64,000 nt of DNA from assembly GCA_951406725.2 (NCBI GenBank), contig OX597822.1, positions 74,896,001 to 74,960,000 on the forward strand, written 5' to 3'. Below, piece by piece: positions 26,801 to 61,339 of the stretch. The notes below the pieces were generated by a model. It was not told the DNA's origin. It ran no database searches and saw only the letters and a program-made list of their open reading frames with translations. Made by a program: the position numbers and the translations under genes. This stretch comes from Octopus vulgaris (lineage: Eukaryota). Numbering within the stretch: position 1 is the first letter of the stretch; every line of letters starts with the position of its first letter.

Positions 26801-29800
26801 AATAATAGGATGTATCTACAGTGTTTTTATTGTTGTATGAAGGGTAGACCAGATATACTTACGAGGGGGTGCTGTAAAGTTCCTGGCTTTAAGGGTTTTA
26901 TGAAAGGCCTGGTTGGTGACCCAACCTTCCGAGTTCTTTTACAAGGCTTAGAAAAACTGAAAGATGGCTGCAATGAGTGTGTGAATCTGAGAGGGGAATA
27001 CGTTGAATAAAATCATAATTAACTGATCCTCTTCTATTTTCTTTTCCCCAAAACCAGGAACTTTTCAGCAACCCCTTATACATATATCCTTATTATTTAA
27101 TCTTACGTTGATTCCTCTGTGGTGTTGTTTTGCATTTATAAATAAATATATACAAATTATATAAAAAAAAAGAGTATACTGTACAGTACTATTTCTACTT
27201 CGGATTTTCACCTATCATGGGGGTTGGTGGGAGTTGGAATGTAACACCCATGATAGCCAAGGGATTACTGTATATATACCACATGGTTCTGGGTTCAGTC
27301 CCACTGCATGGCACCTTGGGCAAGTGTCTTCTACTATAGCCTCGGGCCGACCAAAGCCTTGCCAGTGGATTTGGTAGACGGAAAATGAAACAAGCCTGTC
27401 ATGTATATATATATTGGTATGTGTGTGTGTATATGTTTCTGTGTTTGTGTTTGTCCCCCCAACATCGCTTGACTAACGATGTGGGTGTGTTTATGTCCCT
27501 GTAACATAGTGGTTCGGCAAAAGAGACTGATAGAATAAGTACTAGGCTTACAAAGAATAAGTCCTGGGGTCAATTGGTTCAACTAAAATGCAGTGCTCCA
27601 GGATGGCCACAGTCAAATGACTAACAAGTAAAGGAATAAGTAGAGTACTGTCTCTACTTTACGGATTTTCACCTATCACAGGTGGGGCTCTTCGAATGTA
27701 ACACCTGCAATAGTCGAGGAATTACTGTAATTATAATGACGATGAGGACGACAGCATGGAACTGATTATTACAGAGTTCAACTGAGGTGGAGGAATTCAC
27801 TGATTAAGAATTTGGTGGTGTCCCACAGACTGGATTGTAGCAGTGTTTGAAATGATGTGAAATTTTTAGTAGTTTGGGGTGATGTTTGTGATAGAGACAA
27901 CAGTGATTATAGTTTGTAGTAGTTGTTGTTATCAGCAGTAGTAGTAGTAGAAGTGGTGATAGATTGTTTTAGTTCTGATTATACTCATAAGAATAATAGT
28001 TTAACTGACTCTGCATTCTTGTATTCCAGGTAAGAAGACAGAACATGGTCTTGGCATTGGTCGTGTACCAATTGTCTCAGTGGAAGAAGTGGACATGTCA
28101 GAAACGGATGATATCTCTGGTATTTCAAGATACCCCATTGCTAAAACTCATGGTAAGTAGTGATATAAACGATCCTTTTCACCAAATCTTAATAACAAGT
28201 AAGACATGGTTGTCTCACCTGTCCAGGTGTGGAGTAAATCTGAATATGAACTGACTTGGGACTGTGATGATCTACTTGGCCCATCCTTGTATGGCAATCC
28301 CACGCAAAAGGAATCATGATAAGATTTTCTATTATATATCTGGGTAGCTTTTGTCTCATTATATACTACTAGGCGTAGGAGTGGCTTTGTGGTAAGTAGC
28401 TTGCTTATGAACCACATGGTTTCAGGTTCAGTCCCACTGTGTGGTACTTTACACAAGTCTTTTCTAATATAGCCTCGGGCTGACTAAAGCCTTGTGAGTG
28501 GATTTGGCTGACAGAAACTGAAAGAAGCCCGTCGTATATATGTAATAATAATAATAATAATAATAATAATAGGGAGTATAACTCCAAACTTACAGGGAAA
28601 AATTCAATTTAGCATTAAATCAAATTTCACAATATAAATATTAAAATTAGAGAAAAACCACTATTATGTAATTCAAACAATGATAGACATAAACCATATC
28701 ATATAGAAAAAATGAAATATATGATAAAACATATATCTGGATCACAAAAAGTACATAATAATAAATAAACAGTATATAATAAATAAAAAGACTATGTATG
28801 TTTTGTAGCTATAACTTCAATTCGAAATCCAGTTGGCTGCACCAGGCTCCAATTTAATTTGGCGAGGTGTCTACAGCTGGATGCCCTTCCTAATGCCAAC
28901 CATTCTGAGAGTGTAGTGGGTGTTTTTTACATGCCACCAGCATGGGGAGCCAGTCAGGTGGCACTGGCATTGACCTTGTTCAGTTGGTGCTTATGTGCCA
29001 CCAGCACAGGAAGCTAGTCAGGTGGTACTGGCATTGACCCACACTTGAATGGTGCTTATTACATGTCACCAGCACGAGTGCCAGTCAGGTGGCACTGGCA
29101 TCGACCTCGTTCAGTTGGTGCATATTATGTGCCACCAGCACAGGAAGCTAGTCAGGCGGTACTGGCATTGACCCACACTTGAGTGGTGCTTATTACATAC
29201 CACCAGCATGAGTGCCAGTCAGGTGGCACTGGCATTGGTCACAACAACTATTTCCATTTTGATTTCGATCTTGATTTGCTTTTGATTTTGATTTTCATAT
29301 CCTGCCAAACCCTGCATTGCTTATCATGACATCTTTTAAATGGGTCACTTCAATGAAGTCTCTCTCTTTCAATAGCTCGGAAACACAACCATCATCATCA
29401 TCATCATCTTCATTGTTTAACATCTGCTTTCCATGCTGGCATGGGTTGGATGGTTTGACTGGGGACTGGCAAGCCAGGAGGCTGCACCAGGCTCCAGTCT
29501 GATCTGACAAGGTTTCTACAGCTGGATGCCCTTCCTAACACCAACCACTCCGAGAGTATAGTGGGTGCTTTTTACGTGCCACCGGCACAGTTACAGTGCA
29601 TATCAAAGAAACAATCTCACAATTCTCCTTCCTGATTCATGAATGACAGCACTAAAACATTGAAACTCTTCACAAACTACTAAACTACAACCACGTCGGG
29701 TATCAATAACTCTGGCTAAGACCTGCTACTGTTGTTAGCATATTATCATTTGATTAATTAGTTCTCTCTGTGCTATGAAGCATATAAGGCTGCAATACAA

Positions 29801-32800
29801 TCTCTCCAACCAGCTTTGTTTTCTGTGACTGTTCTGGTCCCATTCCAGCTTCTCCACCCTTCTGTCCTTTTCTTGCCAATGGTCCTTTATGTGGTTGTAG
29901 AGTGCCCTGTTGCTCTTTTCTCTTCAGGCTGTCACTTTAGTGCCACCATACATTCGCTTTCTTGATCTCATTTAAGGACATATCCGACTCAGCATCTGTG
30001 TCCCTATGACGAAATAACATGCTCTCATTTAAAAGACGAACATTTTCTCAGATATTCTTCTGATATTATTGTGTTTTTTGCAGTAATTCTGATGATATTG
30101 GCCTGGATAGTCTGTGCTCCTATTGGTTGCTTAATGTCAATGTACTACAAGAGAATGTGGCCCAACAGTCGCTTCCTTGAAAAACGATACTGGTTTGTGG
30201 TAAGTTTGTTTCGCTTTTCTTTTGCTCTATGTTTCTCTTTTCTGTTTCCACAGCCTTTCATGTGATCATTCTCCTCTTTGATAGGAAGATTTCATCTCAG
30301 TTCTGACAGCATCTGAGAGCATTTACTCCCTTGCATTTAACCTTTAAGCATCCAAACTACTCCATCAAATCTAATACCTATTTATTCACATTGCTTTGAA
30401 TTAATCACGTATTATCCCATAGCTTCGAGATTTTGATGTTGTGAATTTTGTAATTCTGTATTGATTTGTACAGGAAAATGTGTCACTCAAGAAGGACTTC
30501 AGTTTGAAGAATTTTCGTGATGTTTTCTGTTTAGATGCTGTTATTAAATTCATTGGAATTAAATGGTTTTTATTTACTGTCAGGTGACTTTTGGCCAAGC
30601 CTGTATACACATCATTATTTAGCATCCACTTTTTCACGCTTGTGATGGGGTCAAATGGAATCTGTTGAGGCAGATTTTCTACAGCCAAATGACCTTCCTG
30701 TTATGAGCATTAACTAGACATTTCCCTTAACTAGACATAATTTTCACAGACGTCTAGAAACGAACTACCTTGCTTGTATGACAATGGTGATACTCATTAG
30801 CAACTCGTGTCGTCTAGACATCAAATAATGGTTCCAAATGACTCTCATTGTCGAAGCATATGCCCTCAGAGATTCTGGGTCAATGTCCGGAATACTGGAT
30901 GACTACTGAGATTGAGGTACTCCTTAGCTTTTGTTAAAGCCTGACTCACTTCAAATCAAGCAATGTCTGCTCCAGTAATCAGTGGTGACTTGGTCGACAA
31001 GTTCCTCTGCAACAGTCAAAAACGAACAACTTTGCTTGTATGACAATGGTGATACCCATTTGCAACTCATGTTGTCTCATCATCATCATCATCATCGTTT
31101 AACGTCCGTTTTCCATGCTAGCACGAGTTGGATGGTTCGACCGGGGTCTGGGAAGCCAGGAGGCTGCACCAGGATCCAGACTGATCTGGCAGTGTTTCTA
31201 CAGCTGGATGCCCTTCCTAACGCCAACCACTCCAAGAGTATAGCGGGTGCTTTTTACGTGTCACCGGCACAGGTGCCAGGGGAGCCTGGCATCGGCCACG
31301 ATCGGTTGGCGCTTTTTATGTGCCACCAGCACAGAAGCCAGTCAAGGCGGCGCTGGCATTGGCCACGTTCGGATGGTGCTTTTTACATGCCACCGGCACA
31401 GAAGCCAGGCAAGGCGGCGCTGACGTTAAATAATGGTTGTAAATGATCTTCATTGTCGAAGCATGTGCCCTCAGAGATTCTGGGTTCGTGTCCTCTGCAA
31501 CAGTCAAAAACGAACTACCTTGCTTGTATGATGATGATCATCATGACGATACTCATTTACAACTGCTGTGGTGCAAAACTCATAATCCACCATGTTGTGA
31601 AAGTTGGACAACACTAAACAACAGCTGCTGCACCACCACCTCCCCCACTTATATTGAATTTTCAAGCAGCAGAACATAAACAGCAAAACAAAGGACAAAC
31701 TTGTAGTAGTAGTAGTAGCAGCAGCAGTTATATAGTGGTGATGGTTTTAACCTAATGTCAGCTGCTGTCAAGGTCAACTAGAATCAATGATGCCCCAGCT
31801 GTGACAGCCTAGTCTTCCCACCCCTCCCCCATACCCACATCCAGAACCTATACACATTGTTCTTTATTTAGCATGTCTGCTTTAAAACCAGCACAGAAAG
31901 TTATTTATAGAAAGGAAAAAGGTAACCCAGGGAACCTGTTTTGCTTTTCCTTTCTACTCTAGGCACAAGGCCCGGAATTATTTGGGAGGGGTCCAGTCGA
32001 TAAGATCGATCCCAGTACGCAACTGGTACTTAATGTATCGACCCCTGAAAGGATGAAAGGCAAAGTCTACCTCGGCGGAATTTGAACTCAGATCGTAGCG
32101 GCAGACGAAATACGGCTACGCATTTCGCCCGGCGTGCTAACGTTTCTGCCAGCTCGCCGCCTTCCATTTGTTTTTCCATTAACCCATTAGCATTTAAACT
32201 GGCTCTATCTGGCCGGCTGCCAAAATTCTCCCTGTTCTATATTCAAACCAGCCAGGAGAAGCCAGGCCTCTTGCACCTACCCTACAATGTCATTTCAAAA
32301 ATAAGCAATCACATCATCGATTTTCGAAGCAATGAGATAAAGCATGATTAATTCAAAACAATGTGAATAAAAAAACATATTTGATAAAGTAATTTGTATC
32401 CTAAATGGTTTCATGGTTTGTGTGCATATTAATTAGAGTTAATGGTACGTGACGGGAATATTTTAAAATTCTCGATAATTCTGAGAGTCACGTAATTCGA
32501 TTTTAGAGCTAATCTTTAATGAGACATTCCCGAAACCATTTGATTTTTAATTAATATTGGTTTCTAACTCATATTCTTATTAAAATAAATCACCTTTTCG
32601 ATAGGAAATACTAATGAAATTATGTTACCATGTCTGGCTTTGTTTTAACCATTGTAAGGGAAGTAACTTGATTTGTAAATAAGAGAATAACCTCCCTTGA
32701 TTTACTTAACTGGGATTCACTACACTTGGAAAGTAAGATACATTGAATGAGACCACTTGTTGACCAAATTATAAATATACATCTGAGCTGAGATTTAAGT

Positions 32801-35070
32801 CATCATCATTGTTTAACGCATTCTGTGCTGGCATGGGTTGGACGGTTTGACATGACCAGACAAGTTTCCCTACGAGATTGGAAATGGACCCCGAATGTGT
32901 GGTGGTGACACTCATTTACAACTATCTCATGACATCAAAGCAAGGAAACTGTAACACTGACATATATACACGCATATACATATGTACAACAGTTGCCATT
33001 TATAAAAGCTTTGTTTGACCTGGGACTAAAATAGAAGACATTTGCGCAGGATGCCAAGCAGTTGGTCTGACTGAACCCTCAGAAATTCCAAGCTGGTGTT
33101 TGGCCTGCTGGAAGATCACTGTGAGTGAGGCTCCCCTTAGCTTTTGTTAAAGCATGTCTCTAGAGCCCACTTCAAAGACAGGCTACATCTGCCCCAGTAA
33201 TCAGTGGTAATCAGTGGTGACTTGATCAGTAAATTTTCAGTGATGGTTGATAGTCAATAAGTTGAGCTGCAATCCCAAAGTGTGAATGCAGGACCATATT
33301 TGAACCTGTATTCCTGCTGAAATCCCAAACATGAACTCTATGCCTAAACATTGCAGTCAGCACTCATGAAGGACCTGGTGAACCTGTTGGCTGGAGTCAT
33401 CTTGATCCATGTGGATGAATGCTACTACAGGAACATGTCAGGAAGCCTCGTTCTTACCCCACAACCGAATCCGGGCCTAAGCTACCCTTTTCACTCCGCC
33501 ATCCAAATTCTTTACTGTGCCTTTATAAACAGTTTAATTTTCCTTTATTCTTTTCTTTCCAGTTATTTTTATTTTAACTCACCCATGTTTTCTGTATATC
33601 ACCTGATCACACCCCTGATATTAGAAGTGAACCCCTCTTTTCTCTCTTTTGTCTTTTCAGGTCTACTGGCCATGTATGGTGTCAGTGTTTGTGCTCATGA
33701 TTTTGGCTTTCATCTTTTTCTTTGTGGATGCAGGAGGATATGTTGAGGTGAGTCTTCCTTCTTCTCTTTATCTGTTGTCATTGGCAACATCATCATTGTA
33801 TCATCATCACTGCCATCATCATCATCACCACCACCACCATTGTCACCACCACCATCATCATCATTCTATAGTTGGAATTTACCAAAAAACAAAAACAAAC
33901 AAAACAAAAGACGACGAATGTGTAAACAAACAAACAGATGTATTAGTTTAACGCTCGGGGAGTGAGAAAGTCTTTTACATTTCGAACCTACGCTCTTCAG
34001 CAGAAAGGAACACTGAAATAAACAGGGAGAGAATATAAAATCATCAGTCTATACTACTACTACTATTAGAAACAGCTATCATTAATAAAAGTGTGATAAA
34101 TTGGTAGAATCGTTAGAGGCATTTGGCAAATTGCTTTACTTTGTTGTTCTTAATGATCTGGATTCAAATCCTGCCAGATTTGATTTTGCCTTTCATCTTT
34201 TCAAAGTCGATAAGATAAAGTGCAATGGGGTACCAATATATGAACAGTTCTCTAAACAAACAAATTGTATAATGAATAGTTTTTCCTGAATAAAATTAAA
34301 CTCCCAAAATGAGCTGAAATTTGATCCATGAACCACGAGCAGACTGTGAACCTATAAGTGACTGGGAGTCCATTTACTTAGAGAAATGAAATTTGGACAA
34401 TGAACCACTTGTAAACTATTCAAGCATACAAGTTCTGGGAGAATGTGTATGAATGGTACAGTAAATGAATAAACTGAATGGTGAATGGTTCTTCTGAAAA
34501 AAATTATATTTAGCTGACCTGTTGAACTTTGAACAACAAACCTTAAATATTACTATTTCTAAATTTCACAACAAGAGATATTCAGCAACAGTACTTTGTA
34601 GTAAAGATTATCTGTCAACATAACATGGCAGTCCTGGCTTAGGACTAATGTTGCTGTAATTTAGCCCCAGGAGTCAACGTCTCCAGCTGACTATATGACA
34701 CAATCTGTGTCCTTATATTTTCAAACAAGGGAATCTAGCACCCCAACTCTAGCACCCGTTCATAGAGACCCTGTTGTACTAGTCTAGTTCTGGCTCAATG
34801 TAACTGACTACCCAACCTCTTCAGAATTACTGGCATTGTATCTAATTTAGAAAATTATTATTAAGGCGGCAAGCTGGCAGAATCGTTAGCATGCTGGGTG
34901 AAATGGTTTGCAGTATTTTGTCCGTCTTTATGTTCAAATTCTGCTGGGGTTGACTTTGCCTTTCATCCTTTCGGGGTTGATGAAATAAGTACCAGTTGAG
35001 TACTGGAGTTGATGTAATCGTCTATCCCCCCTCCCCCAAATTTCAGGCCTTGTGCCTAAAGTAGAAATGA

Positions 35071-35125
<55 letters not shown>

Positions 35126-37876
35126 GGTGGCGAGCTGGCAGAATCATTAGCATGCCGGGAAAAACACTTAGTGGTATTTTGGCCACCCTTACATTCTGAG
35201 TTCAAATTCTGCCGAGGTCGACTTTGCCTTTCATTCTTTTGGGGTCAATAAAATAAGTCCCAGTGAAACACTGGGGTCAATGCATTTGACTTACCCCCAT
35301 CTCCGAAATCATCATCATCATTATTATTATTATTATTATTATTTAAATGCCTTCTAATATCTTTCTCTCTCTTTGTTATATTTCCAGGCTCCCTATCTAC
35401 CGCTCAGAGCTCACCCAATCATGCTGATTGTCGTCTTCGTGTGTGTCTTAATAATCGTAAGTAAAACATTTTTTTGGCCAATTCTTACACCAGACTCCTC
35501 ACCTTGTAGTGATTTTATGTCAAGCAGGAAACTCAGACATTTTGATCATTGTCCCTTTTAGTGTGATGTAAATTATATCTACCTTATAACCACGAAGGGT
35601 CATACCCTTGAGATTGTGGTTTTGATTCCAGGACTGGGCAATGCATTGCATTCTTGAGTAAATCACTTAACTTCATGTTGATACAGTTCACTCAGTTGTA
35701 AACAAATCAGCCTACAATGGACTGATATACTGTTCAAGAGATTTGTTGTGATCTAGAAATCAGACAACCAGCTCTATAAATCCTACAACTTCAGATAGTG
35801 ATGTCCATGGCTTGGTGGTTAGAGTGTTGGACTCATGATTGTAAAATTGTGGTTTTGATTCCCTGACCAGGCAATGCGTTGTATTCTTGAGCAAATCACT
35901 TTATTTCACATCCACCCTGCTAGTAAAAAAGAGTAATCCTAAGACTGACCAGTGTCCCATCCATGGGGGAATATATATGCCTGATAAACTGGCCTAATGC
36001 TCTTTTTAGGAGTAATGTGGACTAACCAAGAATTGATGACGTTGATGATAACCATATTCAGCTTTACTATGATAGGACTCGCTCTGCCTTTCCTCTTCCT
36101 CCACCCATTGCTGGTGCCTCCACTGTGTGATTGCCACTAATGATGAGAAGACGCATGGCCCAGTGGCTAGAATGCCGGGCTCACAATCATGAGGTAGTGA
36201 GTTCGATTCCCAGACTGGACTGTGTGTTGTGTTCTTGAGCAAGACACTTTATTTCACTTTGCTTCTGTTCACTCAACTGTAGAAATGAGTTTTGACATCA
36301 CTGGTGCCAAGCTGGATTGGCCTTTGCCTTTTCCTTGGACAACATCGGTGGCATGGAGAGGAGAGGCTGGTATGCATGGGCAACAGCTGGTCTTGCACAA
36401 ACAACCTTGCCTGGACTTATGCCTCAGAGGGGGAACTTTCTGGGTGCAATCACATGGTCATTCATGATAGGACTGGTGTCCTGTTCAGAGGAAATGTTGT
36501 GGTCTCAATCACTTGTAATCCTTAGAAACCAAGTAACTGGTCCTCTGAGCCCTTGGACTTGAGACAGTAATGTTCAACAGTTAATGACAATGATGGTAAC
36601 CCTGTTCAGCTTTATCACGACAAAGGGATTTGGAGACTACTGCTTGAGTCTAACTGGATCATGTCCTGTCACTAAACATTGCACTATAATAATTGGCTAA
36701 GAAAATTAGTGGAGTATGGCTCAGTCTACCTGGTTGTAAATAGACACCTCAGCTCATGCAACCAGCGAAACCTTCTTCCACATACCAACTGAATGTTTTC
36801 TAACTTTGCAGTGAACCGAGATCAGATCAAAGAATACAATATATGTTCATCCATTATCTTCATTTTAGGCATTGTGCACCTAAGACCACATTACTCATTG
36901 TCCTTTTTTTTTTTAAAGATTGTAGGGTGTAATTCGAATGGGATTTGGTTGCTATTTCTAGCAGGTTGGGCAACCAAAGACTGTTAGATTAATCAGTTTA
37001 GCTTTCAGTGAATTCATTATCAATCAATATTTAATTTACCAGTAGATGGTTTTCTGCTACTCGCAAAATAATGTTACAGATTTGATTCACAATTTGTATA
37101 ATTTTACCGTTATTTTACATCTAATTTCCTTTTGCATCCATTATTTATTTAATAACACATAAATTTCAAATAATAGCACGCACTGAAAGACAGTGTTAGA
37201 ATTAATGAAGATATCAGATATTATGTTGAGTTAACCATGTAAAAGCTCTCAGTTTATTGTATATATACATATTAGAAGATTTTTTTTTCTTTTGGAAAAG
37301 AAATGATTTAAAAAAATATTCCTGGAGTGGCTGTGTGGCAAGTAGCTTGCTTACCAACCACATGGTTCTGGGTTCAGTCCCACTGCATGGCAACTTGGGC
37401 AAGTGTCTTCTACTATGGCCTCGGGCTGACCAAAGTCTTGTGATTGAATTTCATCATCATCACCATTTAACGTTTGCTTTCCATGCTAGCATAGGTTGGA
37501 CTATTTGACTGAGGACTGGCATACCAGATGGCTGCACCAGTCTCCAATCTGATCAGGCAGAGTTTCTACAGCTGGATGTCTTTCCTAACGCCAACTGCTC
37601 CGAGAGTGTAGTGAGTGCTTTTATGTGCCACTGGCACAAAGGCCAGTCAGGTGGTACTGGCAGTGGCCACGCTCAAATGGTGTTTTTTATGTACCAAGCT
37701 AGATTGGCCTTTGCCTTTCCCTTGGACAATGACCTCGCCCGAATGTTTTTTCACATGCCACCGACACAAGTGCCAGTAAGGCAACACTGGTAATGATCAC
37801 ACTCAAATGGTGCTTTTTATGTGCCACTGGCATGGAAGCCAGTCAGCTGCTACGGAAAGTGAAAGAAGCCCGTCAT

Positions 37877-37920
<44 letters not shown>

Positions 37921-40900
37921 GTGTTTGTGTGTCTGTGTTTGTCCCCCCAACATTGCTTTACAACCAATGCTTGTGTGTTTACGTCCCTGTAACCTAGCAG
38001 TTTGGCAAATGAGATCGATAAAATAAGTACTAGGCTTACAAAAATTAAGTCCTGGGGTCGATTTGCTCGACTAAAAGCGGTGCTCCAGCATGGCCGCAAT
38101 CAAATGACTGAAACTAGTAAAAGAATAAAAGAATAATACTGTAAATAACCGTACAAACTACAATAGCACAAGCAGTAATTTCCTTGAAGGATTTGGCTAT
38201 CAGAAATATATATTTTTTGATATGTCTGTATGAAGTAGCATCATGAGGTGTAAGAGAGCTAGAAAGGACAATGACGGAATGTTACCTCGCTGTGTTAAAT
38301 AATGCCATCCCATAATAAATTAAAACTATTTTTCTGTAGTTGAAATCTCCATTAATAAAAGAATCTTCAAAACCACATTTTAATAAAAATATATGAAAAT
38401 CATGATTTTTAAGAATTTTTAATAATCGCTTTAATAGTCACTTTCTTTTAGTAAAAGTTGTATACTCTAGACTAATTAATAAACAGCTTTCTTTATTATA
38501 ACACAGATATAAATATAAGCTTAATACAAGTAATACACTGCTATGTTGGGGGTCTTATGATTGGTACTTCACCGTTTCACATTTGTGAGCTCAAATCTTT
38601 CTAGAATTGATATTGTTAATCTTTTTCTAGTAAAGTAAATGAAATGCACTTCTTAAAAAATACAACAGAAAAGAAACCAAAAAAATTATTTACTTATACA
38701 AGTTTGTCAAGTGGAGTCAGTGACTTGACTTTTATGAGGTCAGTGACATCTATCAGTGAGTGATTGTTTGTTGCAGGCACATGCTGTCAGTAATTACTCA
38801 GGGTAGGCAGTTGGTGACCTTTATGTAGCAAAACATACAAAACAATAAGCAAAACACAGGTGTGTGACTGAGCTGAAGGCAGATTTACTTCTGCCTTTAT
38901 AGCACATAGAGAAAACGTTGTTGTAGGAGTGTATGCAGCATGTGTACTACATCAGTCCTATTCGTAGCTTTAATACTGAGATTGAAAGGCAGGGGCGAAT
39001 TATTTCTACCTAATCTACAAATAATAAAATATTTTGTATTTTATGCATAGTAATTAGAGTAACCAACACAATTTTATTGAATTAGATGCATATTTTGCCA
39101 TGACAGGAAAATGTTGCTATTGATATATTTTATTCAAGGTAGGCACTGCCTATCTTGCCTGTCTAGGGGGCATGTCCCTGGTTTGTTGAGTTTATAGGGA
39201 AAGTGAAATAGAAGTGGCTACACTCCTAAGCAATGCAAGACATTCCCTAGTGAGAATTGAAACTGTATCGCAAGCTCCAGTTTACTGGAGATTCAACTTC
39301 TCATCTCATTTCCTCTTCTGCTACAGCAGGAGTGATTTAACAAACCATGTTTGTTAAATCACTCTTGAAGCATGAAATATCTTACTGACACCTAATGCCA
39401 GCCGAGTGAAGATTATAGAATAACATAAAGACAAGATTTGAACCTATAATCCATCAAGTTAGATAGCCAAGCTACTATCATCTCTGCTCAGCTAGTTTTA
39501 CATTGTACAGCTTACGTTAAGCAAATACCTAAACCCTCAATCTTCTTTTTCGTATGGAATTATCAGTCCTTCTGCTTATTTAGTTATTTTTCAGTTACCA
39601 ACACACAGAACCACTAATCACTTCTCTCTTGTGTTTTCTTTCATTTATAATTGTTTATTGAAGCCCACATCATTTTATTTGCAAGTGTTTCTCCTAAGTC
39701 AGCATCAGCAACACCGTTTATTTTGCAAGTGTTTATCTAAGCCACACTATTTATTTGCAGTTGTTTATATACAACCACACTCCATTGATTTTTCTTCTTC
39801 TTTTCTTCTTCTGCTATTTATCTAAACTGCACCGTTTGCTCTGCGATTGCTGATCTAAGCCATTACTATTTGTTTGCAAGTGTTTATCTTATACAGCTCT
39901 ACAAAAAAAAAACAACAACAAAAAAACAAAAACAAACAAGCATAGAAAATAAATAGCTAAATAAATAAATAAACAAACAAACAAACAACCATTTCATCCA
40001 GTCATGCAGATAAAACCATGAAAGAATCTGTTGTAACCCTGACTCGCTTTTCTTTGTTTTTCTCTTACAGCCGATAATAATGTTGTTGATTCGATGCACA
40101 GATGGCTGCCTTCAGTTTATCTTCAACATCATCTGTTTCATTCTCTGCCTGGTGACTCTCATTTTGGCCAGTGAGTATTATAGCATTGCCGACAGCACTT
40201 CTTTGTTTTCCTTTAATCTCAGTCTCTTCATCTCTCTCTCTCTCTCTCACATAATTACGTCATAAACATTTTTAATTATTATTATAATTATTATTATCAT
40301 AACTCACATTTACTGCTGTATGAAACAGATCCCACCTCCATAACTCTGATTTACATGTAAACGTGTCTGTATAAATACATGTATAAAGTGTATAAATGTA
40401 TGTATAAACATACAGGTGTCGGCTGTGTGGTAAAGAAAATTGCTTCCCGACCATTTGGTCTTAAGTTCAGGTCCATTGCATGGCACCTTGGGCAAATATT
40501 TTTTACCATAGCTCTGGGCCAACCAAAACCTTGTAAGTAGATTTGGATGGAAACTGCAGATAACTCATTGTGTGTGTGTGTGTACCTGTGTCTATACCAT
40601 TGCTCTGCAACCATTTTTCACATGTGGTACACTTGTATTCTTTTCAAAATTCGGCTGTACACCTGAACTAAAATTATAATTGAAAGTATAGGGAAAAAAA
40701 ATTATATTTAGGTTACACTGCGGCACACCTAGTGTCATCTTGTGGCACACCAGCATGCCTCTGCATACCGGTTGCAAGGCATTGGTCTAGATAACAAAAT
40801 GTTTATAAATAATCATCTTCATCATCCTAATCATAATACAGGCAAGGTTGTTCATTTCCAGTCTTTTGTGGAAAACATATCTGTTCATTATTTACATTTG

Positions 40901-41724
40901 ATGGATATTTGTCTTCATCATATGGCGTAGTGGTTAAGAGCGCAGGCAACTAACCCCAAGATTTCAAGTTTGATTCCAGGCAGCAACCTAAATAATAATA
41001 GTAATGATAATAATAATAATGATAATTATAATAATAATGATTAATAATAATACCTTAGGAATGAGAACCCAGGTTCAAAATTTCCCCAAGATACCTGATG
41101 AAGGCTGGAGTGTATATCAGCTGAAACGTTGTGTTAACAACAAACAAGATGAGGACAAATATCCATCAAATGTAAATAATGTAAATAATGTACATAATTC
41201 CTCATCTCTTAAATATAGAACTGTAATATCTGTTCATGTGGAAGTCTTACCTTGCTTGGAAACAGGTGAGGGTTGTCAACAGGAAGAGCTGTAGAAGATC
41301 TGCATCAACAAATTCCATGGAAAATTGGGCATTAAATGAAGATGGTAATGAAAGTATGCAGTGTGGCTGAATAGTTAAGAAGTTATCTTCACTATTAAAA
41401 GGTCCTGGGTTCAATTCCTCTGTATGGCATCTTGGATATATATATATATATTATACCCTAGCCTTGAGTTAACCTGATCCTTGCAATTGAAATTAGGTAG
41501 ATTGGAAATTGTGCTGAAGCCTGTTGGCTTCGGCACATACAGTAGATTGGTGGAAACTCTTCACAGCCTTGGCTTTGTTATCTCATTCTATCTAACACAC
41601 ACACACACATATATATATATACATACACATAATTAAGGGATTAGCAAAAAGTTGCTTCACCACATACCAAAATTTAGAAATAGCAGTCAAAACTGCTAAT
41701 ACTTTTTTGCTATTCCCTTAATTA

Positions 41725-41775
<51 letters not shown>

Positions 41776-44700
41776 ATGAATGTGTGTTAGATAGAATGAG
41801 ATAACAAAGCCAAGGCTGTGAGGAGTTTTCAGGACATTTATAATGAAGTAGCCTTACTACTATTTCAGGGATATTATGAACATCCTTTCATCAGAGGCGG
41901 TGTGAGAAAATATTTGAGTTCGAACTATTGTGGAAGAGGAAATATAGAGGGAAATAAGACAATGAAAGTATAAATAAGATATATAAAGTCCATAACGCTT
42001 AATGTTTACCCACTACTCTTTGGGTCTTCTAGATACCAATACCTCTCCTATATATATGTATATGGTCTATAAGACTTTCATTGGTGTTTACTCTTTGTTT
42101 CCTTGCAGTTCCAACCTTACTGATCAGTCTAGACTATGGCAGATACTACATACCCTGGTGGATTACATGGTTCCTTGTTGCCATCATGATAATCCAGCTT
42201 ATTATTGATATTTTACTTAAGATTCACGATTTCTGCTATTACGAGAAGAACGAAGGTAAGTCTTTCATATTTGCATTCGGTTTGCAGTTTTTTTCTTTGA
42301 AATGTGAAATTGTATGTTGAAGTAGATGTTATTGCATTTTGGGAGGGTCATACTGCCAGTCAGTGAAACACATGCACTGGTTGTAGTTCACTTTAGTTTA
42401 TTATCAGTTAGATAGATAGTTTTATTGTATGATTATTTTTATCATCAGTTAATTATAATTAGTTTGGAACACTGAGCCAAGAGTAAGGAGCAAGAAGTGT
42501 CTGTTAACTGAGGAAATGTTGGGATGCGGGGTGGTGGGGGTGCAAGTGGGATCATCATTGATAAGGTCAAAGGCTCTGGTGAAAGATCTATGGTGAACCA
42601 ATTATTTGATTAATTCATCAATTAATTGACTAATTATCTAAGTAATTGATAATAAAACTCAAGTGAAATATGACTACAGAAGGTAACTCATTTTTGTGTA
42701 TCTAATATTTAATCGGAGTTTGGATGGGGTGGGGTTGCAAAGGTGGAACAGTGCATGTAACCTTTCTTCATGGCCTCTGAGACAAGCGAGAGGAAGGGAA
42801 GCAGGGAGGAAATTATCCTCAGGCTAAGGGCTACCTTGAATACTTTATAACAGCATAGCTTAAGGTACTCAAAGATCAGGTGGTTGTGTTGAACAAGGCG
42901 GCAGGTTAAGTGTACCCCCTATTTCTGTCTCTCTCTTCCCGTGCATTCTCTCTGACTTTTCCCCCCTCCTTCCTTTGTCTTTCAAATACTCCAGTTCTTT
43001 TTTTCCATCTCTCTTCTTAACACTCACATTTCTCTCTATCTTTCAATATATTTTTCTCCTTCATTTGATCTCTCTGTCCCTTCTTTCTATCTTTCTTCTC
43101 TCCTTATATTATATATCTCTCTCTATTCCTGTAACATCTTATATCCCTCTCACACTCTCTCTTGTTCCTTTCTTTTTTTTAGTTATTCTATTGTTGCCTC
43201 TCATTCTCTTGTTCTCCTTCTGTCTTTTCCTCTCATATATTCTCATCTTACTCTCATTTTGTCTTTCTCATGCCCCCTCCTACCACCTCTTTTCTCACTT
43301 TTTGTTTGTATCTTTCTCTCTCTCCCTCGCTGTCTGTCTCTTTCTGTCTTCGTTTTTCTCTTTCACTGACATTTCCCTTCCTCCGTTGTCTCCAATCAAC
43401 CTCTCACCTCACTCCATCACACATCCTATTAGAGAAACTTCATTGCTGCTGTATTCCTCAAGCAGTCGCATACTGAAAGCTTCAATACACCTCTTGTTTC
43501 TTTGTAGTCTCGCCTCAAGATGTCACTTCTAAACACCTTTTTTTTTATACCTTTTGTCTGCTGAAGGGCTACATAGGGAGCTGCACAACTAACACTAGAG
43601 TTTTCTCCCCCTGCTTCCATGTTCTCAGTGCAACTCTCTTGTGTTTGCTTAAATTTTTCTAGCGAATGAAATTGCCTGAAAATTCAGATACAATTATTTT
43701 GACCCAAACAACAACTGAAAAAAATTTCATTGAAATCCATTTGATAGAGACTGCATGCGTGTTAAGAACATGTTTCATTCTTTGATACAGATCATACACA
43801 AATCACAATTTGTATCAAATATTTGTTTTATATTCTTATAAATTGTCAGTTTAAACAGATGATCAGCATGAATGGGTTAAGTGTCTTAAACAAAACCATG
43901 TTATTGACACAAATGCTATCTCTATTGCAGAACGCCGAGAAAAATATGAATACTCAAAGAGGGAGAATCCAAAATTGTACATCCCAGAACCGCACCCCGT
44001 TGTAAGTATACACCTCTTATTATATAGCCTCTTGTTGATGTTGTTTGACAATCAGGGCCCTTATACTGTATAGTTCATATTAGGATCAGTTATTACAATG
44101 GTAATAAGATTGCTGGCTGTGTTCCGTTGACACTGCCTGCATTCAATCCTGGGCATCTCTTACCAGGGCAGAGTGAGAAATGAAGAAGTGATGGAAAGAA
44201 CTTGAATTGGAAGATTTCTGGACATAGTGACGAAGCAGTGGATTATGGTTTACTGGCCATGTGCTTTGATTACTGTAGGAGAAACATGCTACCATTGTGA
44301 TGTGGTGGATGCTGGAAAGAGGGAAAAGACTGAGTGGAAGACCAAGGAAAATGTGGAACAGTACATTCCAGGTCGACATATCATCATCATTATTGTTTAG
44401 CGTCCGCTTTCCATGCTAGCATGGGTTGGACGGTTCAACTGGGGTCTGGGAAGCCAGAAGGCTGCACCAGGCCCAGTCTGATCAGGCAATGTTTCTATGG
44501 CTGGATGCCCTTCCTAACGCCAACCACTCCGTGAGTGTAGTGGGTGCTTTTTACGCGCCACCGGCATGGAGGCCAATCGGGGTGGCACTGACAACGGCCA
44601 CATTCGGATGGTTCTCTTACGTGCCACCGGCACTGGTATCACAGCTACAATTTCCATTGATGTTGACATACTAGCAATGGAATTGGCTCAAGTGGAGCTG

Positions 44701-46394
44701 AGAGGAAAGCGAACAGTTGGGATGTTTGAAGGAAGTTCCTTACCTGTTGCGCTGATGGTATTGGTGTAAAATAAGTGAAATAGATACTTAGATCTCTATC
44801 AGGTTTCAGCAATGAATAGTCAATTGATTGGTCAACTGGACTATTTACTCAATGATTTGAGGTGTAAGTGGACGAGTATTCCACAGATATGTAAGTAAGC
44901 CTGTCTGTCTGTATGGTTAAGAAGCTTTGCAACCATGTAGTTTTGGGTTCTGTTTCACTGTGTGGCACCTTGGGCAAGTGTCTCCTCTCGACTGAGGCTG
45001 ACCAATGCCTTGTGAGTTGATTTGGTTGAGACAAGCTGAAGAAACCCACTGAATGTGTGTGTGTGTGTTACTGTATCCTTACCTTAATTTGCTATGATGT
45101 TTGTAAGTAAGCATCACCATGCAAGCGTTTTCCTTCATTTCCAATCTGCTAGAGCATGTTTTTTTGCAGAATATTAAAAATGAACGATTCATTTACAATT
45201 ATCACACGATGGCAAGACAAGCAGACACAAACACACACATCCATATACGATGGACTTCTTCCAATCTCAAGGCTTTGGTTGACCTAGGGCTATAGTAGAA
45301 AATATTTGCTCATGGTCCCGTGCAGTGAGACTGAACTTTAGACCATATGGCTCAGAAGTGAACTTAACCACCCAACCAGTCCTTCATCAGGGATAATATA
45401 TATTTTAATATACTGGATTTAAATTAACTTGTTAATATTTATTTTCTACATAAATTAATCTTATTAGAAAATTACTATTTTTAAATCTCACGAGAGATAT
45501 TTAGCTACAGTACTTTGTAATAAAGATTGTTTGCCAACATAACATGGCAGTCCTGGTTTAGGACGAATGTTGCTGTAATTTAGATCGTGTCATTTAGCCA
45601 ACTGGAGACAATGTCTCCGGAGGCTAAATTACAGCAACATTCGTCCTAAACCAGGACTGCTATGTTATGTTGGCAAACAATCTTTACTATAAATTAATCT
45701 TATGCCTAATTAAGAAGAATCCAGTTTGAGATTGTGGAACTTGGTTACGAATGCTTACATTCTCTGTTCAAATCTCTTTTTTGTCTATTTGGGCTGGTAA
45801 ATTAAAGTAATTAAAGTTCCAGCCCTGTAACAGAGGTTGATTCAATCTAGAGTACACTTCCCTTCAAAATCTGATGGTCATGTGCCTGGTAGAAGCTTGT
45901 ATTATTTGTATTTATTTTTGTTTCTTTGAAACTAACTTGGGACTGTCGGTTACCACTACGAGCATTCCAGTTGATCTGATCAACAGAACAGCCTGCTCAT
46001 GAAATTAATGTACAAGTGGCATGCATACCCTTAACGTTCTCAAGAAGATTCAGCACCATACAGAATGTGACAAGGCCGGCCCTTTTGAAATACAGGTACT
46101 GCTCATTTTTGCCAGCTGAGTGGACTGGAGCGATGTGAAATAAAGTGTCACCAGGAATTGAACTCACGACCGTAAAGTTGTAAGCTGGATACCCTAACCG
46201 CTAAGCCATGTACTGTCACTTCTTTGAAACTTTCCTACAATCCAATGTACCAATATTTGTTTGTACTCACTCTGTTTTTCCGTTCTGTTTATTATTTGCA
46301 GGGTCGACGCTTCAAGAAGTGTTGTCTGTTTGTTCACGTGTTCTTCACGGTGGTGCTGTCAGTTATTGTTATAATAGTGATCGCTGCCGCCTAA
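6454..46394 (+). CDS. FRRS1: FRRS1/SDR2-like ferric-chelate reductase family protein (signal peptide-Reeler-DOMON-cytochrome b561-TM), 15 coding exons, 602 aa
   Basis: Exons 6454-6646, 9441-9586, 11856-11944, 12984-13086, 15957-16169, 20419-20523, 25870-26023, 28030-28152, 30084-30199, 33661-33747, 35388-35456, 40071-40170, 42109-42255, 43931-44001, 46302-46394. All introns are GT-AG with compatible phases, giving 1809 nt with no internal stop. Family motifs: CSSMAP...QTFW (Reeler), CGKTRGC-P-GC...ALSDD--EGDD (DOMON), AKTHVILMILAW, YWF, AHP, FN (b561), GRRFKK plus final TM. The symbol denotes family, not proven orthology. Confidence 0.92.
6811..6920. repeat. Tandem repeat, 24-bp unit AGTTGTCTGACTGACTGCYAACTT x about 4.5
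   Basis: Seen directly. Confidence 0.9.
7089..7433. mobile_element. Palindromic Tc1/mariner-type MITE (about 155-bp arms)
   Basis: CAGTTG...CAACTG-TA ends; near-perfect inverted arms; sits in the microsatellite of a family A SINE. Confidence 0.85.
8285..8824. mobile_element. Tandem dimer of a roughly 225-bp piggyBac-like MITE
   Basis: TTAA-CCCTTTTGATAC...GTAACAAAAGGG-TTAA; second copy carries a short SINE-tail insertion. Confidence 0.75.
9441..9586 (+). CDS. Coding exon 2: Reeler (VTVSSIDGSKFQDLQIVARK...GTF...NCKEVSG)
   Basis: ttttcag| and |gtaagt; phase 1 to 0. Confidence 0.88.
10370..10790. repeat. Degenerate tandem repeat (GTGTTCACTRTRTG...TTGAGTATATT units)
   Basis: Recurrent gtgttcact motifs. 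Confidence 0.7.
10870..11754. mobile_element. hAT (Charlie-like) MITE with 8-bp TSD GTTTAGAT and a nested SINE at about 11290-11580
   Basis: TIRs CAGCATTTCTTAAA and TTTAAGAAGCGCTG; GTTTAGAT at 10862-10869 and 11755-11762. Confidence 0.85.
11856..11944 (+). CDS. Coding exon 3: Reeler (DGYVKINNELLSNITFFWSADKYVGHIYF)
   Basis: ttattccag| and |gtaagt; phase 0 to 2; W-x-A...G-x-I-x-F pattern. Confidence 0.88.
12046..12640 (+). mobile_element. tRNA-derived SINE family B with triplicated body; other copies near 8845(-), 31952(-), 34864, 35125, 52795, 56656, 57638, 62375(-)
   Basis: B-box GAGTTCAAATTCC; central GCCTTTCATCCTTTCGGGGTCGATAAA-AGTACCAG; many copies. Confidence 0.85.
12984..13086 (+). CDS. 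Coding exon 4: Reeler end and linker (FTISRDYQTFWIRERS...PKVPQE)
   Basis: Poly-T gcag| and |gtgagc; TFW motif. Confidence 0.9.
15346..15667 (+). mobile_element. tRNA-derived SINE family C; other copies near 9722, 13891, 24194, 36151
   Basis: TTAGTGGTTAG A-box, GAGTTCAATTCC B-box, TTGAGCAAGACACTTTA core. Confidence 0.8.
15957..16169 (+). CDS. Coding exon 5: DOMON N-terminal part (ADCGKTRGCYREPAGCWELNC...WMTFALSDDTYE)
   Basis: tttcag| and |gtaagt; 71 codons; FRRS1-type Cys pattern. Confidence 0.93.
16328..17094. mobile_element. MITE-like element with about 115-bp inverted arms and a nested family A SINE (16603-16970)
   Basis: 16336-16440 is the reverse complement of about 16985-17090. Confidence 0.75.
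17264..17537 (+). mobile_element. tRNA-headed SINE with Penelope-like tail (copy 1)
   Basis: A-box TGGCGTAGTGG, B-box GAGTTCGATTC, (TAA)n spacer, tail with CTGATGA...GAAAC; homologous to 40919-41225. Confidence 0.75.
17411..17456 (+). ncRNA. Degenerate minimal hammerhead ribozyme motif
   Basis: GACAC-CTGATGA-AA-GCTG...CAGC-C-GAAACATT-GTGTT; the stem III palindrome ACGT is mutated to ACAT. Confidence 0.45.
20419..20523 (+). CDS. Coding exon 6: DOMON (GDDYAFDCIEDFKHG...ELDE)
   Basis: ttattcag| and |gtgagt; GDD-x4-C. Confidence 0.92.
21519..22000. mobile_element. Second tandem dimer of the piggyBac-like MITE
   Basis: Same family and nearly the same linker as 8285-8824. Confidence 0.75.
23600..24130. 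repeat. Low-complexity (ACC/ACT)n then TC-rich tract
   Basis: Seen directly. Confidence 0.9.
25220..25490. mobile_element. Inverted pair of Penelope-like tail sequences with decayed hammerhead-like cores
   Basis: CTGAAGAAGGCTG...CAGCTGAAA near 25390 and an inverted counterpart near 25315-25345; shares AAGATGAGGAC and CATAATTCCTCATCT-like motifs with the tail of the 17264/40919 family. Confidence 0.55.
25870..26023 (+). CDS. Coding exon 7: DOMON (PKKGIVFETGSHYNNRLRCLFRIQK...WHVLLGGGKAWD)
   Basis: Long pyrimidine tract, catcag| and |gtaagt; C-x-F-R motif. Confidence 0.92.
28030..28152 (+). CDS. Coding exon 8: DOMON His region to first b561 His (KKTEHGLG...YPIAKTH)
   Basis: ttccag| and |gtaagt; phase 1 to 1; 123 nt. 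Confidence 0.9.
30084..30199 (+). CDS. Coding exon 9: b561 TM (VILMILAWIVCAPIG...YYKRMWP...YWFV)
   Basis: ttttgcag| and |gtaagt; LM-x-x-AW and WF motifs. Confidence 0.94.
31078..31420 (-). mobile_element. Retroposon family D with (GAT)n tail; other copies near 20740, 24440, 29391, 37452, 44381
   Basis: Shared CATCATCGTTTAACGTCC...GGATGCCCTTCCTAACGCCAACC...GCTTTTTACGTGCCACC. Confidence 0.75.
33661..33747 (+). CDS. Coding exon 10: b561 TM (VYWPCMVSVFVLMILAFIFFFVDAGGYVE)
   Basis: ttttcag| and |gtgagt; 29 codons. Confidence 0.9.
35388..35456 (+). CDS. Coding exon 11: b561 TM (APYLPLRAHPIMLIVVFVCVLII)
   Basis: tttccag| and |gtaagt; AHP motif. Confidence 0.9.
40071..40170 (+). CDS. Coding exon 12: b561 loop and TM (PIIMLLIRCTDGCLQFIFNIICFILCLVTLILA)
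   Basis: tctcttacag| and |gtgagt; phase 0 to 1. Confidence 0.88.
40877..41237 (+). mobile_element. tRNA-headed SINE with Penelope-like tail (copy 2), with 12-bp TSD and inverted tail fragment at the 5' end
   Basis: ATATCTGTTCAT at 40877-40888 and 41226-41237; 40889-40919 is the reverse complement of 41148-41178. Confidence 0.8.
41090..41135 (+). ncRNA. Minimal type I hammerhead ribozyme motif (Penelope-type)
   Basis: Stem I GATAC/GTGTT, core CTGATGA(A), stem II GGCTG/CAGCT, GAA-ACGT-T palindromic mini stem III. Confidence 0.6.
41553..41830. repeat. Fold-back inverted repeat with mirrored microsatellites
   Basis: GAAACTCTTCACAGCCTTGGCTTTGTTATCTCATTCTATCTAACACAC and its reverse complement; inner arm CATAATTAAGGGA/TCCCTTAATTATG. 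Confidence 0.9.
42109..42255 (+). CDS. Coding exon 13: TM (PTLLISLDYGRYYIPWW...KIHDFCYYEKNE)
   Basis: ccttgcag| and |gtaagt. Confidence 0.9.
43931..44001 (+). CDS. Coding exon 14: hydrophilic loop (ERREKYEYSKRENPKLYIPEPHPV)
   Basis: tattgcag| and |gtaagt; phase 1 to 0 bridges exons 13 and 15. Confidence 0.85.
45521..45686. repeat. Fold-back inverted duplication of a repeat also present singly at about 34560-34770
   Basis: About 62-bp near-perfect arms TAAAGATTGTTTGCCAACATAAC...GTAATTTAG. Confidence 0.9.
46302..46394 (+). CDS. Coding exon 15: final TM and stop (GRRFKKCCLFVHVFFTVVLSVIVIIVIAAA*)
   Basis: tatttgcag|; G-x-x-FKK plus TM as in FRRS1 C-termini; TAA at 46392-46394. Confidence 0.9.
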   Translation, partial: GRRFKKCCLFVHVFFTVVLSVIVIIVIAAA

Positions 46395-46640
46395 TGGATT
46401 AACAGATTAACTCTCTGCAACAACCTGCCACCAAGCGATTCTCTAAATCCTGCCTTACATCACAATCACCACCCACCACCACCACCATACCGGCAAACTT
46501 CAGTCTTGCGATGGATATGTTTGCTGGTGCTTTGGTTATCATTGTGGATTGTTATACATCGATACTGAAGATAAATGGTGCTATTTTGCAGACAAAAGAT
46601 TTTTTTTTTCTGGAAAAAAAAAACAAAACATAAAAGAACA

Positions 46641-54559: not shown

Positions 54560-55725
54560 GTTATATGGGTCCAATTCTGCGGTAAATCTGATAAGAAACC
54601 ACACCTCATCATCCAACCTGAACTTAATGATCTAGTTCGTGATCTAACACTTACTAAGCCACAAAGTGAAGTCCTGGTCTCACGTCTACCGCAATGGAAC
54701 CTGTTGGATAAAGATGCTTGTATTACAGTATTTAGGAAACATTCTGGAGATTACCGCAATCCTTCACTCTGGAAAACAACTTGACTTACTGTAATGATAT
54801 CAGAGACCTATTCAATGCCCTTGAGCTGACCTATGAACCAAATGAGTGGAGGTTATTCATAGATGCGTCCCTTTACAGCATAAAAGCGGTTCTGTTGCAC
54901 ATTGGGAACACCATGCCTTCAGTTCCAATTGCTCACTCAGTCATTTTCAAGAGAAACATCCAAGAACCTCGCTTTTATTCAAGGAACATAAGAGGCTAAT
55001 TTGTGCGGACTTGAAAGTAGCTCTACTTAATGGGCTACAAACTGGATACACCGAGTGACTGCGTTTCCTTTGCGTGGGAGAGCAGGGCCAGATCAGAACC
55101 TTATGTACACTCAGAATGGCCACGTCCGGAAACTATGATGCTTGGATGCCATAATGTAAATCATGAGTCACTAGTTAAGGAGAAAATCATTTTGCCAGCA
55201 CTGCATATAAAACTAGGCCTAATGAAGCAATTTACCAAAGCACTGCAACTTAACAAGCCAGGTCTCCAGTACCTCAAGGTGATCCTCTCGAAAATAAGCG
55301 GTGCCAAGATTAAAGAAGGCATATTCGTAGGCCCTCAGATTCGTCAACTTATAGCTGATGAGGACTTCGAGACGACAATGGATGAAACTGTGCTAGTGGC
55401 CTGGCATGCATTCAAAGATGAATGTAAAGGACTTTTGGGAAAGCACCCAGTGGCCCAGCGAGAGAGTATAGTGGAGTGCATAATCAAGTGCTACCAAGAT
55501 CTCGGATGCAATATGTCACTGAAGATACACTTTCTATATTCTCGTTTGTCCTCAGAGAATGCACGAGACGTAAGTGATGGACATGGAGAGAGGTTCCATC
55601 AAGGTATAGCGTCGATGGAAAACAGGTATAAGGGGAAATGGAGACCAGCTATGCTGGCTGACTTCTGCTGGAACCTGAAGCGTGACACACCTGACATGTC
55701 TTATAAACGAAGAAATAAATACTAA
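54560..55725 (+). pseudogene. Decayed DDE DNA transposase, probably CMC/Chapaev3-like
   Basis: Frameshifted ORFs 54542, 54781 and 55030 join into PHLIIQ-ELNDLVRDL...WRLFIDAS-SIKAVLLH...LHIKLGLMKQF...KEGIFVGPQIR...MSLKIHFL...VSD-HGERFHQ-I--ME-RY-G-W---MLADFCW. Superfamily assignment is from memory. Confidence 0.8.
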
Positions 55726-61025: not shown

Positions 61026-61301
61026 TTACATAAATATATTAGCTTGTTAATGAAATATATGAAGCGCGTATTCATTATATTAGTTATAGTTTATCGATAA
61101 TGAAGCTTAACTAATTCAATATTGATCACAGTTAACAATTATCTATGATTAATAAAGTTTGTCGTCGTAGAAAATAATTATACAGGCTTTGTGTAATTGT
61201 GGTAAGAAAGTATTCATTATTAGAGATATTTAGTTTCATTAAGTAATGGCTGTTTAAACGTTTCTTGTTGTAAACAAACGCATAGAGGAGAATTGTTTGT
61301 T

Positions 61302-61337
<36 letters not shown>

Positions 61338-61339
<2 letters not shown>

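Follow-up and report, generated by a model that had tools for sequence, protein, structure and literature searches.

What does a cytochrome b561 protein of the ferric reductase type do once it has lost both histidines that hold its cytoplasmic heme? This question is raised by an FRRS1-like gene of Octopus vulgaris, which occupies 6454-46394 on the forward strand of a 64,000-nucleotide stretch of genomic DNA (assembly GCA_951406725.2, contig OX597822.1, positions 74,896,001 to 74,960,000; this whole stretch is referred to as the window). Exon-by-exon translation yields a single open frame of 602 residues plus a stop codon, spread over 15 exons, and the encoded protein arranges a Reeler domain, a DOMON domain and a b561-type membrane domain in this order. 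As judged from its sequence, the protein is an FRRS1-type CYBDOM by descent and architecture, and its ligand pattern indicates that it is likely unable to move electrons across the membrane. We propose, with somewhat more confidence than doubt, that it has been conserved as a surface sensor or scaffold that has no catalytic role and keeps at most one outer heme, and we regard the chances that H375 and H452 still hold a heme as evenly balanced.

The initial annotation of this locus had claimed that two of the four b561 heme histidines, His2 and His4, are replaced by Tyr416 and Cys488. Exon translation reproduces the residue numbers and coordinates exactly: Tyr416 is encoded by TAC at 33664-33666 and Cys488 by TGT at 40134-40136, and the retained His1 and His3 correspond to H375 (CAT, 28149-28151) and H452 (CAC, 35412-35414), all on the forward strand. 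H452 is the only histidine between residues 376 and 538. In an alignment of the 11 closest proteins, Y416 and C488 occupy the His2 and His4 columns without gaps, with WFVVYW aligned to the family motif WFxxH and FNIIC to FNWxH, in line with the motif reading of the annotation. For a wider comparison, a profile was searched against 1.84 billion representatives and the best 150 of 3,960 matches were taken; of 160 proteins in total, 154 cover the b561 region, and P0042, P0074, P0106, P0108, P0115 and P0156 were dropped. The profile consists of eleven sequences, four of which lack His4, and the sample thus leans towards the octopus clade; some sampled homologs could be pseudogenes or mis-predictions, and several have long branches. 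All six heme ligands, including the Met and His of DOMON, are present in 137 of the 154 homologs (hereafter the intact homologs), and the octopod losses are therefore not due to chance. The spacings of 41 residues (H375-Y416) and 36 residues (H452-C488), on which the assignment had also leaned, are the modal spacings of the family, found in 122/137 and 136/137 intact homologs. The basic RP...R loop is indeed replaced, as had been noted, by IRCTDGCLQ: with positions counted from the nearest ligand histidine, the Arg at H3+21 is changed to I473 and the Arg at H4-7, present in 137/137 intact homologs, to Q481.

On which side of the membrane does the missing pair lie? In the Dcytb crystal structure, H86 and H159 bind the heme on the cytoplasmic side and H50 and H120 bind the apical heme (PMC6123691), and the earlier assignment of His2 and His4 to the cytoplasmic heme agrees with the described H86/H159 pair. 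A profile alignment of 85 homologs with Dcytb (E 0.042) equates H375, M395, Y416, H452 and L456 with H50, R70, H86, H120 and G124, respectively, the Dcytb residue numbers being counted along the printed alignment. Because His4 lies beyond the printed stretch, spacing and the family motif are the basis for its mapping. The octopus outer pair thus matches Dcytb H50/H120, and Dcytb H86/H159 and R70 have no counterpart in the octopus protein. One review assigns His1 and His3 to the cytoplasmic side, opposite to the Dcytb structure (PMC11718626); our side assignment follows the Dcytb structure, PMC10691727 and the topology, in which H375 opens the first helix after DOMON. With His2 and His4 gone, the octopus protein lacks two of the four histidines by which a diheme cytochrome b561 is recognized.

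The missing histidines are not encoded elsewhere in the gene region. No in-frame WFxxH or FNxxH motif occurs in an exon-like setting at 28000-46500, the best non-exon match in a tblastn search with 9 homologs is no better than E 0.055, and no His-bearing substitute exon was found. Furthermore, Argonauta carries the same Tyr for His2, the same Cys for His4 and the same Glu for the DOMON heme Met, and H375 and H452 are kept in the octopods.

The damage to the inner heme site extends well beyond its two ligands. Both octopods keep 4 of the 14 cytoplasmic heme and ascorbate positions, versus 12-14 in 136/137 intact homologs; the cytoplasmic and DOMON positions were taken from PMC10691727, and the allowed residues were set after the data had been seen. 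The propionate-binding Arg/Lys of the inner heme at H1+20 is M395, the Asn/Gln at H3+14 is I466, and the small residues at H3+18 and H4+4, the latter Gly in the family, are M470 and C492. The basic residues for propionate and ascorbate on the cytoplasmic side are lost at M395, Q481 and I473, and K398, K409, W412 and F413 remain. The summed side-chain volume of six inner-pocket positions rises to 800 cubic angstroms versus a mean of 645.

The DOMON heme site is altered as well. In its heme-ligand motif SxDxxMGxD, as given in PMC10691727, the ligand Met is replaced by Glu248 (GAG, 16167-16169, forward strand). The residue is Glu in P0001-P0003 and Met in 143/150 homologs. The octopus DOMON thus has one of the two ligands by which a heme-binding DOMON is recognized, His340 (28044-28046), and lacks the other. 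The proposed iron-binding Ser and Asp residues are retained beside Glu248, which adds a carboxylate to this pocket.

In the outer pocket, H375 and H452 are present, as are the small residues A382 at H1+7 and S506 at H4+18, and the pocket is nevertheless changed. The Gly at H3+4, found in 136/137 intact homologs, is Leu456 (35424-35426), and the position H1+1, which is Gly, Ala or Ser in 137/137 intact homologs, is Val376. The two octopods score 5/7 and 4/7 at outer-pocket positions, under every intact homolog (7/7 in 129 and 6/7 in 8). Because the data themselves guided the choice of two of the seven outer positions and of every set of allowed residues, these pocket scores describe rather than test. 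The same V376 and L456 pair occurs in P0104, a protein without His3. Given the change of Gly(H3+4) to Leu456, a single outer heme is possible, at about even odds.

Is the b561 fold itself lost? An AlphaFold2 model built from 85 sequences (an earlier 11-sequence model was too weak in the membrane part) has a predicted local distance difference test score of 90.3, a predicted template modelling score of 0.77 and six membrane helices after DOMON. Compared with 48,161 solved chains, residues 367-540 best match Arabidopsis Cytb561 (4o6y; Z 12.0, root-mean-square deviation 3.1, 155 aligned), followed by human Dcytb (5zlg; Z 11.9, root-mean-square deviation 2.9, 161 aligned). These Z values alone are within the common helical-bundle range; the Dcytb profile alignment and the PF03188 matches of close relatives agree with them. 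DOMON matches the DBH DOMON (Z 11.9) and the CDH cytochrome (Z 10.7), and Reeler matches F-spondin (Z 11.0-13.6). According to the model, the four-helix b561 core fold is retained. Other searches are less informative about the membrane part: Pfam detects no Cytochrom_B561 domain in the O. sinensis ortholog P0001, although its close relatives P0003, P0004 and P0006 match PF03188; Foldseek clearly matches Reeler only, with b561 chains absent among the matches listed; and sequence searches of the PDB with P0001, A1, a stretch of P0006 and A3 give no significant b561 match. Atlas feature searches lead to b561 clusters (0.90 and 0.93) and are silent on the loss of histidines.

The gene does not look like one in decay. 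Octopus and Argonauta are identical at 145/163 DOMON positions, 121/143 positions of the b561 core, 42/42 positions of the loop at residues 539-580 and 75/127 Reeler positions, and four short loops are identical at 11/11, 12/12, 7/8 and 7/7 positions. Every ligand change is common to both. Such identity despite the ligand losses argues that the protein is constrained for something, and the identity in the b561 core and cytoplasmic loop sustains the view of the annotation that random decay is not at work. The loop, which lies on the cytoplasmic side between the fifth and sixth membrane helices (exons 13-15, 42225-46325), is typical of this mollusc subfamily, and the 11 closest proteins all have His539 and His584.

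Were the two inner histidines lost together? P0003, the sister of the octopods (support 100/100), comes from contigs no longer than 2,733 bases; it has Glu for the DOMON Met, Phe for His4 and Cys at both H3+4 and H4+4, and it keeps His2, Lys at H1+20 and Arg at H4-7. Since this nearest relative lacks His4 yet has His2, the loss was probably stepwise rather than paired: the inner site would have eroded with His4 going first and His2 later. According to the tree, the changes of His4, of the DOMON Met and of Gly at H3+4 and H4+4 would predate the split from P0003, and the octopods would later have lost His2, the Lys that binds the propionate and the Arg for ascorbate. The annotation had reasoned that losing one partner pair while keeping the other points to selection for a single outer heme. 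Of 96 core sites without variation in seven intact orthologs from gastropods and bivalves, the two octopods retain 51, so that retention of both outer histidines has a background chance of about 0.28. Retention of H375 and H452 in the octopods alone is thus unremarkable in sequence terms and makes a weak case for selection. This background and the stepwise loss leave such selection a mere possibility for the octopus protein; a single outer heme as such is feasible, as described below for mutants that lack the same histidine pair.

How would such a protein work? Plant and animal CYBDOMs are described as using a three-heme path, in which electrons pass from cytosolic ascorbate to the inner heme, the outer heme, the DOMON heme and finally Fe3+ (PMC10784544, PMC10784552). 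In the octopus protein, this route would be cut at its entry, where the inner heme site is gone, and probably also at its exit, where the DOMON heme Met is replaced. With the entry gone and the exit changed, transmembrane ascorbate-driven reduction is unlikely. We propose instead that the acidic DOMON pocket (S243, D245, E248, D251 and H340), together with H375/H452, would bind metal or heme outside the cell and that the invariant cytoplasmic loop 539-580 would bind a partner inside. The protein lacks defining ligands of both a diheme b561 and a heme-binding DOMON and should therefore not be classed among the ferric reductases; for the octopod proteins, "putative ferric-chelate reductase 1" is probably a mistaken label. 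If these proteins are heme-free, they add one more pseudoenzyme to an expanded family, which is of modest interest.

Several points weigh against the sensor or scaffold proposal. The role is inferred from conservation alone, and loop 539-580 is well conserved in intact orthologs as well (26-27/42), so that it is not a gain accompanying heme loss. Along a long branch, the protein has retained H375, H452 and H340 and, near the outer heme, M379, W383 and S506. The Gly at H3+4 is not absolute, being present in 21/25 insect Group 4 b561s (PMC10691727). Finally, a b561 without His2 and His4 can still hold a redox-active heme and STEAPs transfer electrons through one heme, and loss of the inner heme is thus no proof of redox loss.

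The strongest competitor, which we consider doubtful for the octopus gene, is a functional single-heme redox protein similar to STEAP and YedZ, in which H375 and H452 hold the outer heme, the donor is a quinol in the membrane, ascorbate on the outside or some other cofactor in the old inner pocket, and Fe3+ or Cu2+ is reduced at the DOMON pocket. Its best support comes from homologs. His4 is lost in 10/153 and His2 in 3/154 proteins, versus one loss each of His1 (1/153) and His3 (1/154), and the sole His1 loss is in P0159, whose flank looks mis-modelled; the DOMON Met is lost in 7/150 and the DOMON His in 3/152. In a tree built from 34 of the 154 rows (every one of the ten His4-less proteins and 24 chosen others), from which 13 ligand and pocket columns were removed, His4 changes six times on the best tree, and five of these changes are forced by well-supported branches. 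A single origin of the seven His4-less rows in the mollusc clade was rejected (approximately unbiased test, p-AU 3.85e-5). A single origin of P0001-P0003 with P0011/P0012/P0023 is not rejected (p-AU 0.214), which leaves five or six His4 losses. The inner heme has therefore likely been lost several times independently in related animal proteins, as read from their sequences. Both outer histidines are kept in 5/6 His4-less lineages (chance 0.008-0.13, depending on the assumed background), and P0011, P0012, P0013, P0023 and P0026 keep 7/7 outer-pocket positions with only 8-9/14 inner ones.

The single-heme arrangement is also chemically feasible. Engineered H83A/H156A and H83L/H156L double mutants of Arabidopsis thaliana (At) CYB561B1, which lack the same histidine pair, retain the low-potential heme at 46 and 21 mV (PMC10005133, citing Desmet 2011), and a single outer heme is thus feasible; unlike the octopus protein, these mutants are laboratory-made and have an unchanged outer pocket. 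STEAP1-4 and YedZ resemble the octopus protein in the loss of cytoplasmic-leaflet heme histidines, a loss through which the STEAPs arose, and they keep the outer heme (PMC6194020, PMC3591440). The likeness is an analogy only: STEAPs belong to a different superfamily, have flavin adenine dinucleotide in the inner site and, in STEAP2-4, a domain for reduced nicotinamide adenine dinucleotide phosphate (NADPH). No NADPH oxidoreductase or flavin-binding domain is detected by Pfam in the octopus protein, whose 602 residues divide among Reeler, DOMON and six helices. STEAP/YedZ have a conserved Arg (and Gln) for the inner His (PMC3591440), whereas the octopus protein has Tyr416/Cys488 and an inner pocket refilled with hydrophobic residues.

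The octopus protein fits such an arrangement less well. Its V376 and L456 are those of the His3-less P0104, its DOMON Met is gone and the retention of its two outer histidines is unremarkable against the background. In family-conserved columns, its outer and inner sites (7/10 versus 9/22) do not differ significantly (Fisher p 0.25); the same asymmetry gives p 0.004 for P0012 and p 0.021 for P0026, values that are uncorrected and count the lost ligands among the columns. The single-heme explanation thus fits relatives with intact outer pockets better than the octopus gene, and these relatives are a better test of it. As candidates from sequence, P0011, P0012, P0023, P0013, P0026 and P0036 may be the best natural single-membrane-heme b561 proteins. 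P0011 and P0012 also retain the DOMON Met and His. It is a tentative reading that FRRS1-type proteins repeatedly, at least five times among the sampled homologs, became single-membrane-heme, outward-facing modules by losing the cytoplasmic heme, much like the STEAPs within the NOX/FRE superfamily, and the octopus protein would be the far end of this series; such modules would contain the outer heme, whether or not joined by the DOMON heme, and would either draw on a donor other than cytosolic ascorbate or sense redox state or metals at the surface. The family offers a natural graded series, from intact proteins to proteins that lost His4 with a perfect outer pocket, then His4 and Met, then His2, His4 and Met. 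This series allows the role of the outer and DOMON hemes without the inner heme to be tested, as well as FRRS1 functions beyond iron reduction.

Some members of the series deserve a note of their own. P0011, P0012 and P0023 group in one clade, in which His4 is Tyr and H4+4 is Trp. P0036 is also a His4-less FRRS1-like protein, and the six candidates just named have complete or near-complete outer-heme pockets. P0026, which is sister to the intact P0033/P0016, parallels the octopods independently, with the DOMON Met changed to Pro, His2 to Tyr and His4 to Leu and with His1 and His3 kept. The DOMON-b561 protein P0104 has Leu for Met, no DOMON His and Tyr for both His3 and His4; its sequence suggests that it is probably fully heme-free.

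A less probable explanation is relaxed selection on a redundant paralog, which lost its hemes stepwise and was kept, with leftover histidines, for folding or a minor role. The stepwise pattern on the tree, the long stem branch of the P0001-P0003 clade (0.71 changes per column) and the partial decay of all three heme sites are consistent with it, and O. sinensis has another b561, of the TScytb type, in Fig 9 of PMC10691727. However, the octopod end branches are short (0.084 and 0.095), the Octopus and Argonauta loops are fully or nearly identical and none of the 15 exons contains a stop or frameshift, and we therefore regard this explanation as improbable.

Still less credible is a ligand swap, in which Tyr416/Cys488, or His2 and Tyr in relatives, bind the inner heme at a shifted potential, with Glu248/His340 as the ligands of a DOMON heme. 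Heme iron can be ligated by Tyr, Cys and Glu, Tyr416 and Cys488 are common to Octopus and Argonauta, and His4 is replaced by Tyr in 5/10 His4-less proteins. However, other replacements are non-ligands (Phe in two proteins and Leu in one), a His-to-Tyr change needs a single C-to-T change, all 10 His4-less proteins have another residue (Cys, Ser, Trp, Glu or Arg) for the Gly at H4+4 and the propionate partner is now Met395.

An artefact of the gene model, the assembly or RNA editing, with histidines in the real transcript, is hardly credible even though coleoid cephalopods recode many codons through adenosine-to-inosine (A-to-I) editing, given that the O. sinensis model is identical at 601/602 residues, that Argonauta has the same residues and that no alternative exon was found. 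Rescue by A-to-I editing was rejected because no A-to-G change makes a His codon of TAC or TGT, or ATG of GAG. At the Q481 codon (CAG, 40113-40115, forward strand), an A-to-I edit would yield Arg, the residue of all intact homologs.

How does the octopus protein compare with known systems? Like FRRS1/SDR2 and insect CG8399, it has the Reeler-DOMON-b561 order, the His spacings, the WF motif and the DOMON Ser/Asp pocket with its His. Unlike these proteins, it has Tyr for His2, Cys for His4 and Glu for the DOMON Met, and it has lost Arg at H1+20, H3+21 and H4-7 and Gly at H3+4 and H4+4. Its place in the tree is among intact FRRS1-like proteins of gastropods and bivalves, inside a 15-row clade (support 100/98) with 8 His4-intact proteins, some of which are named records (Solemya, Pomacea, Babylonia and Littorina); with P0003 as query, a region search brought no further close relatives (3/45 candidates). 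Dcytb (CYBRD1, 5ZLG) and Arabidopsis Cytb561-B (4O6Y), the top structural matches of the membrane part, are, unlike the octopus protein, diheme ascorbate-dependent reductases without Reeler or DOMON. The plant CYBDOMs HYP1 and CRR share the combination of DOMON and b561, modelled in their case as a three-heme path; unlike the octopus protein, they are described with six intact ligands, measured activity and no Reeler. In PMC10691727, Drosophila CG6479 is reported as a b561-domain protein without the conserved histidines and was set aside by the authors, which indicates that His-less b561 homologs have been noticed before. A literature search whose coverage leaves out most subscription papers found no report of a His-less mollusc or cephalopod FRRS1.

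The gene lies in intron-rich animal DNA, and all of its 14 introns are bounded by AG..GT. Exon 5, used as a search query, retrieves P0001, the Octopus sinensis "putative ferric-chelate reductase 1", from which the window protein differs at one residue, Glu122 (11880-11882, forward strand) instead of Lys122. Pfam places Reeler at residues 29-155 (E 2.3e-17) and DOMON at residues 208-327 (E 9.9e-7, 29.5 bits, below the 32.7 cut-off). All exons are on the forward strand. Exon 1 (6454-6646) encodes a hydrophobic N-terminal segment at residues 7-27, likely a signal peptide, and the start of Reeler, which continues through exon 2 (9441-9586) and exon 3 (11856-11944) and ends in exon 4 (12984-13086), followed by a linker. 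The N-terminal half of DOMON, with S243, D245 and Glu248 as the final codon, is encoded by exon 5 (15957-16169), and DOMON continues in exon 6 (20419-20523; G249, D251 and C256) and exon 7 (25870-26023). Exon 8 (28030-28152) carries both His340 and H375. The first membrane helix and cytoplasmic loop 1 are encoded by exon 9 (30084-30199), where the V376 codon is split by the intron and M395 lies at 30140-30142, and the second helix with Tyr416 by exon 10 (33661-33747). Exon 11 (35388-35456) encodes the third helix with H452, L456 and I466, and exon 12 (40071-40170) encodes loop 3 and the fourth helix, with M470, I473, Q481, Cys488 and C492. The fifth helix, H539 and the start of the conserved cytoplasmic loop lie in exon 13 (42109-42255), the loop continues in exon 14 (43931-44001), and exon 15 (46302-46394) encodes the sixth helix with H584 and the stop codon.

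Elsewhere in the window, a 234-residue stop-to-stop frame at 55021-55725 (forward strand), with broken frames upstream (54560-55725), has no Pfam match, and we take the region 54560-55725 to resemble a degenerate DNA-transposon gene. Presumably, the stretches at 3500-4620 and 61330-61680, judged by eye, are fragments of long interspersed nuclear element (LINE) and Tc1/mariner type; the one frame checked in these stretches, at 61257-61676 on the minus strand, has no Pfam match. Head-to-tail interspersed repeat units of 184-198 and 67 bases, with the appearance of short interspersed nuclear elements, occur at 12090-12590, 24493-24857, 28915-29237 and 52843-53207, and a tandem array at 2757-3393 comprises about 24 copies of a 26-base unit with 82% matches.

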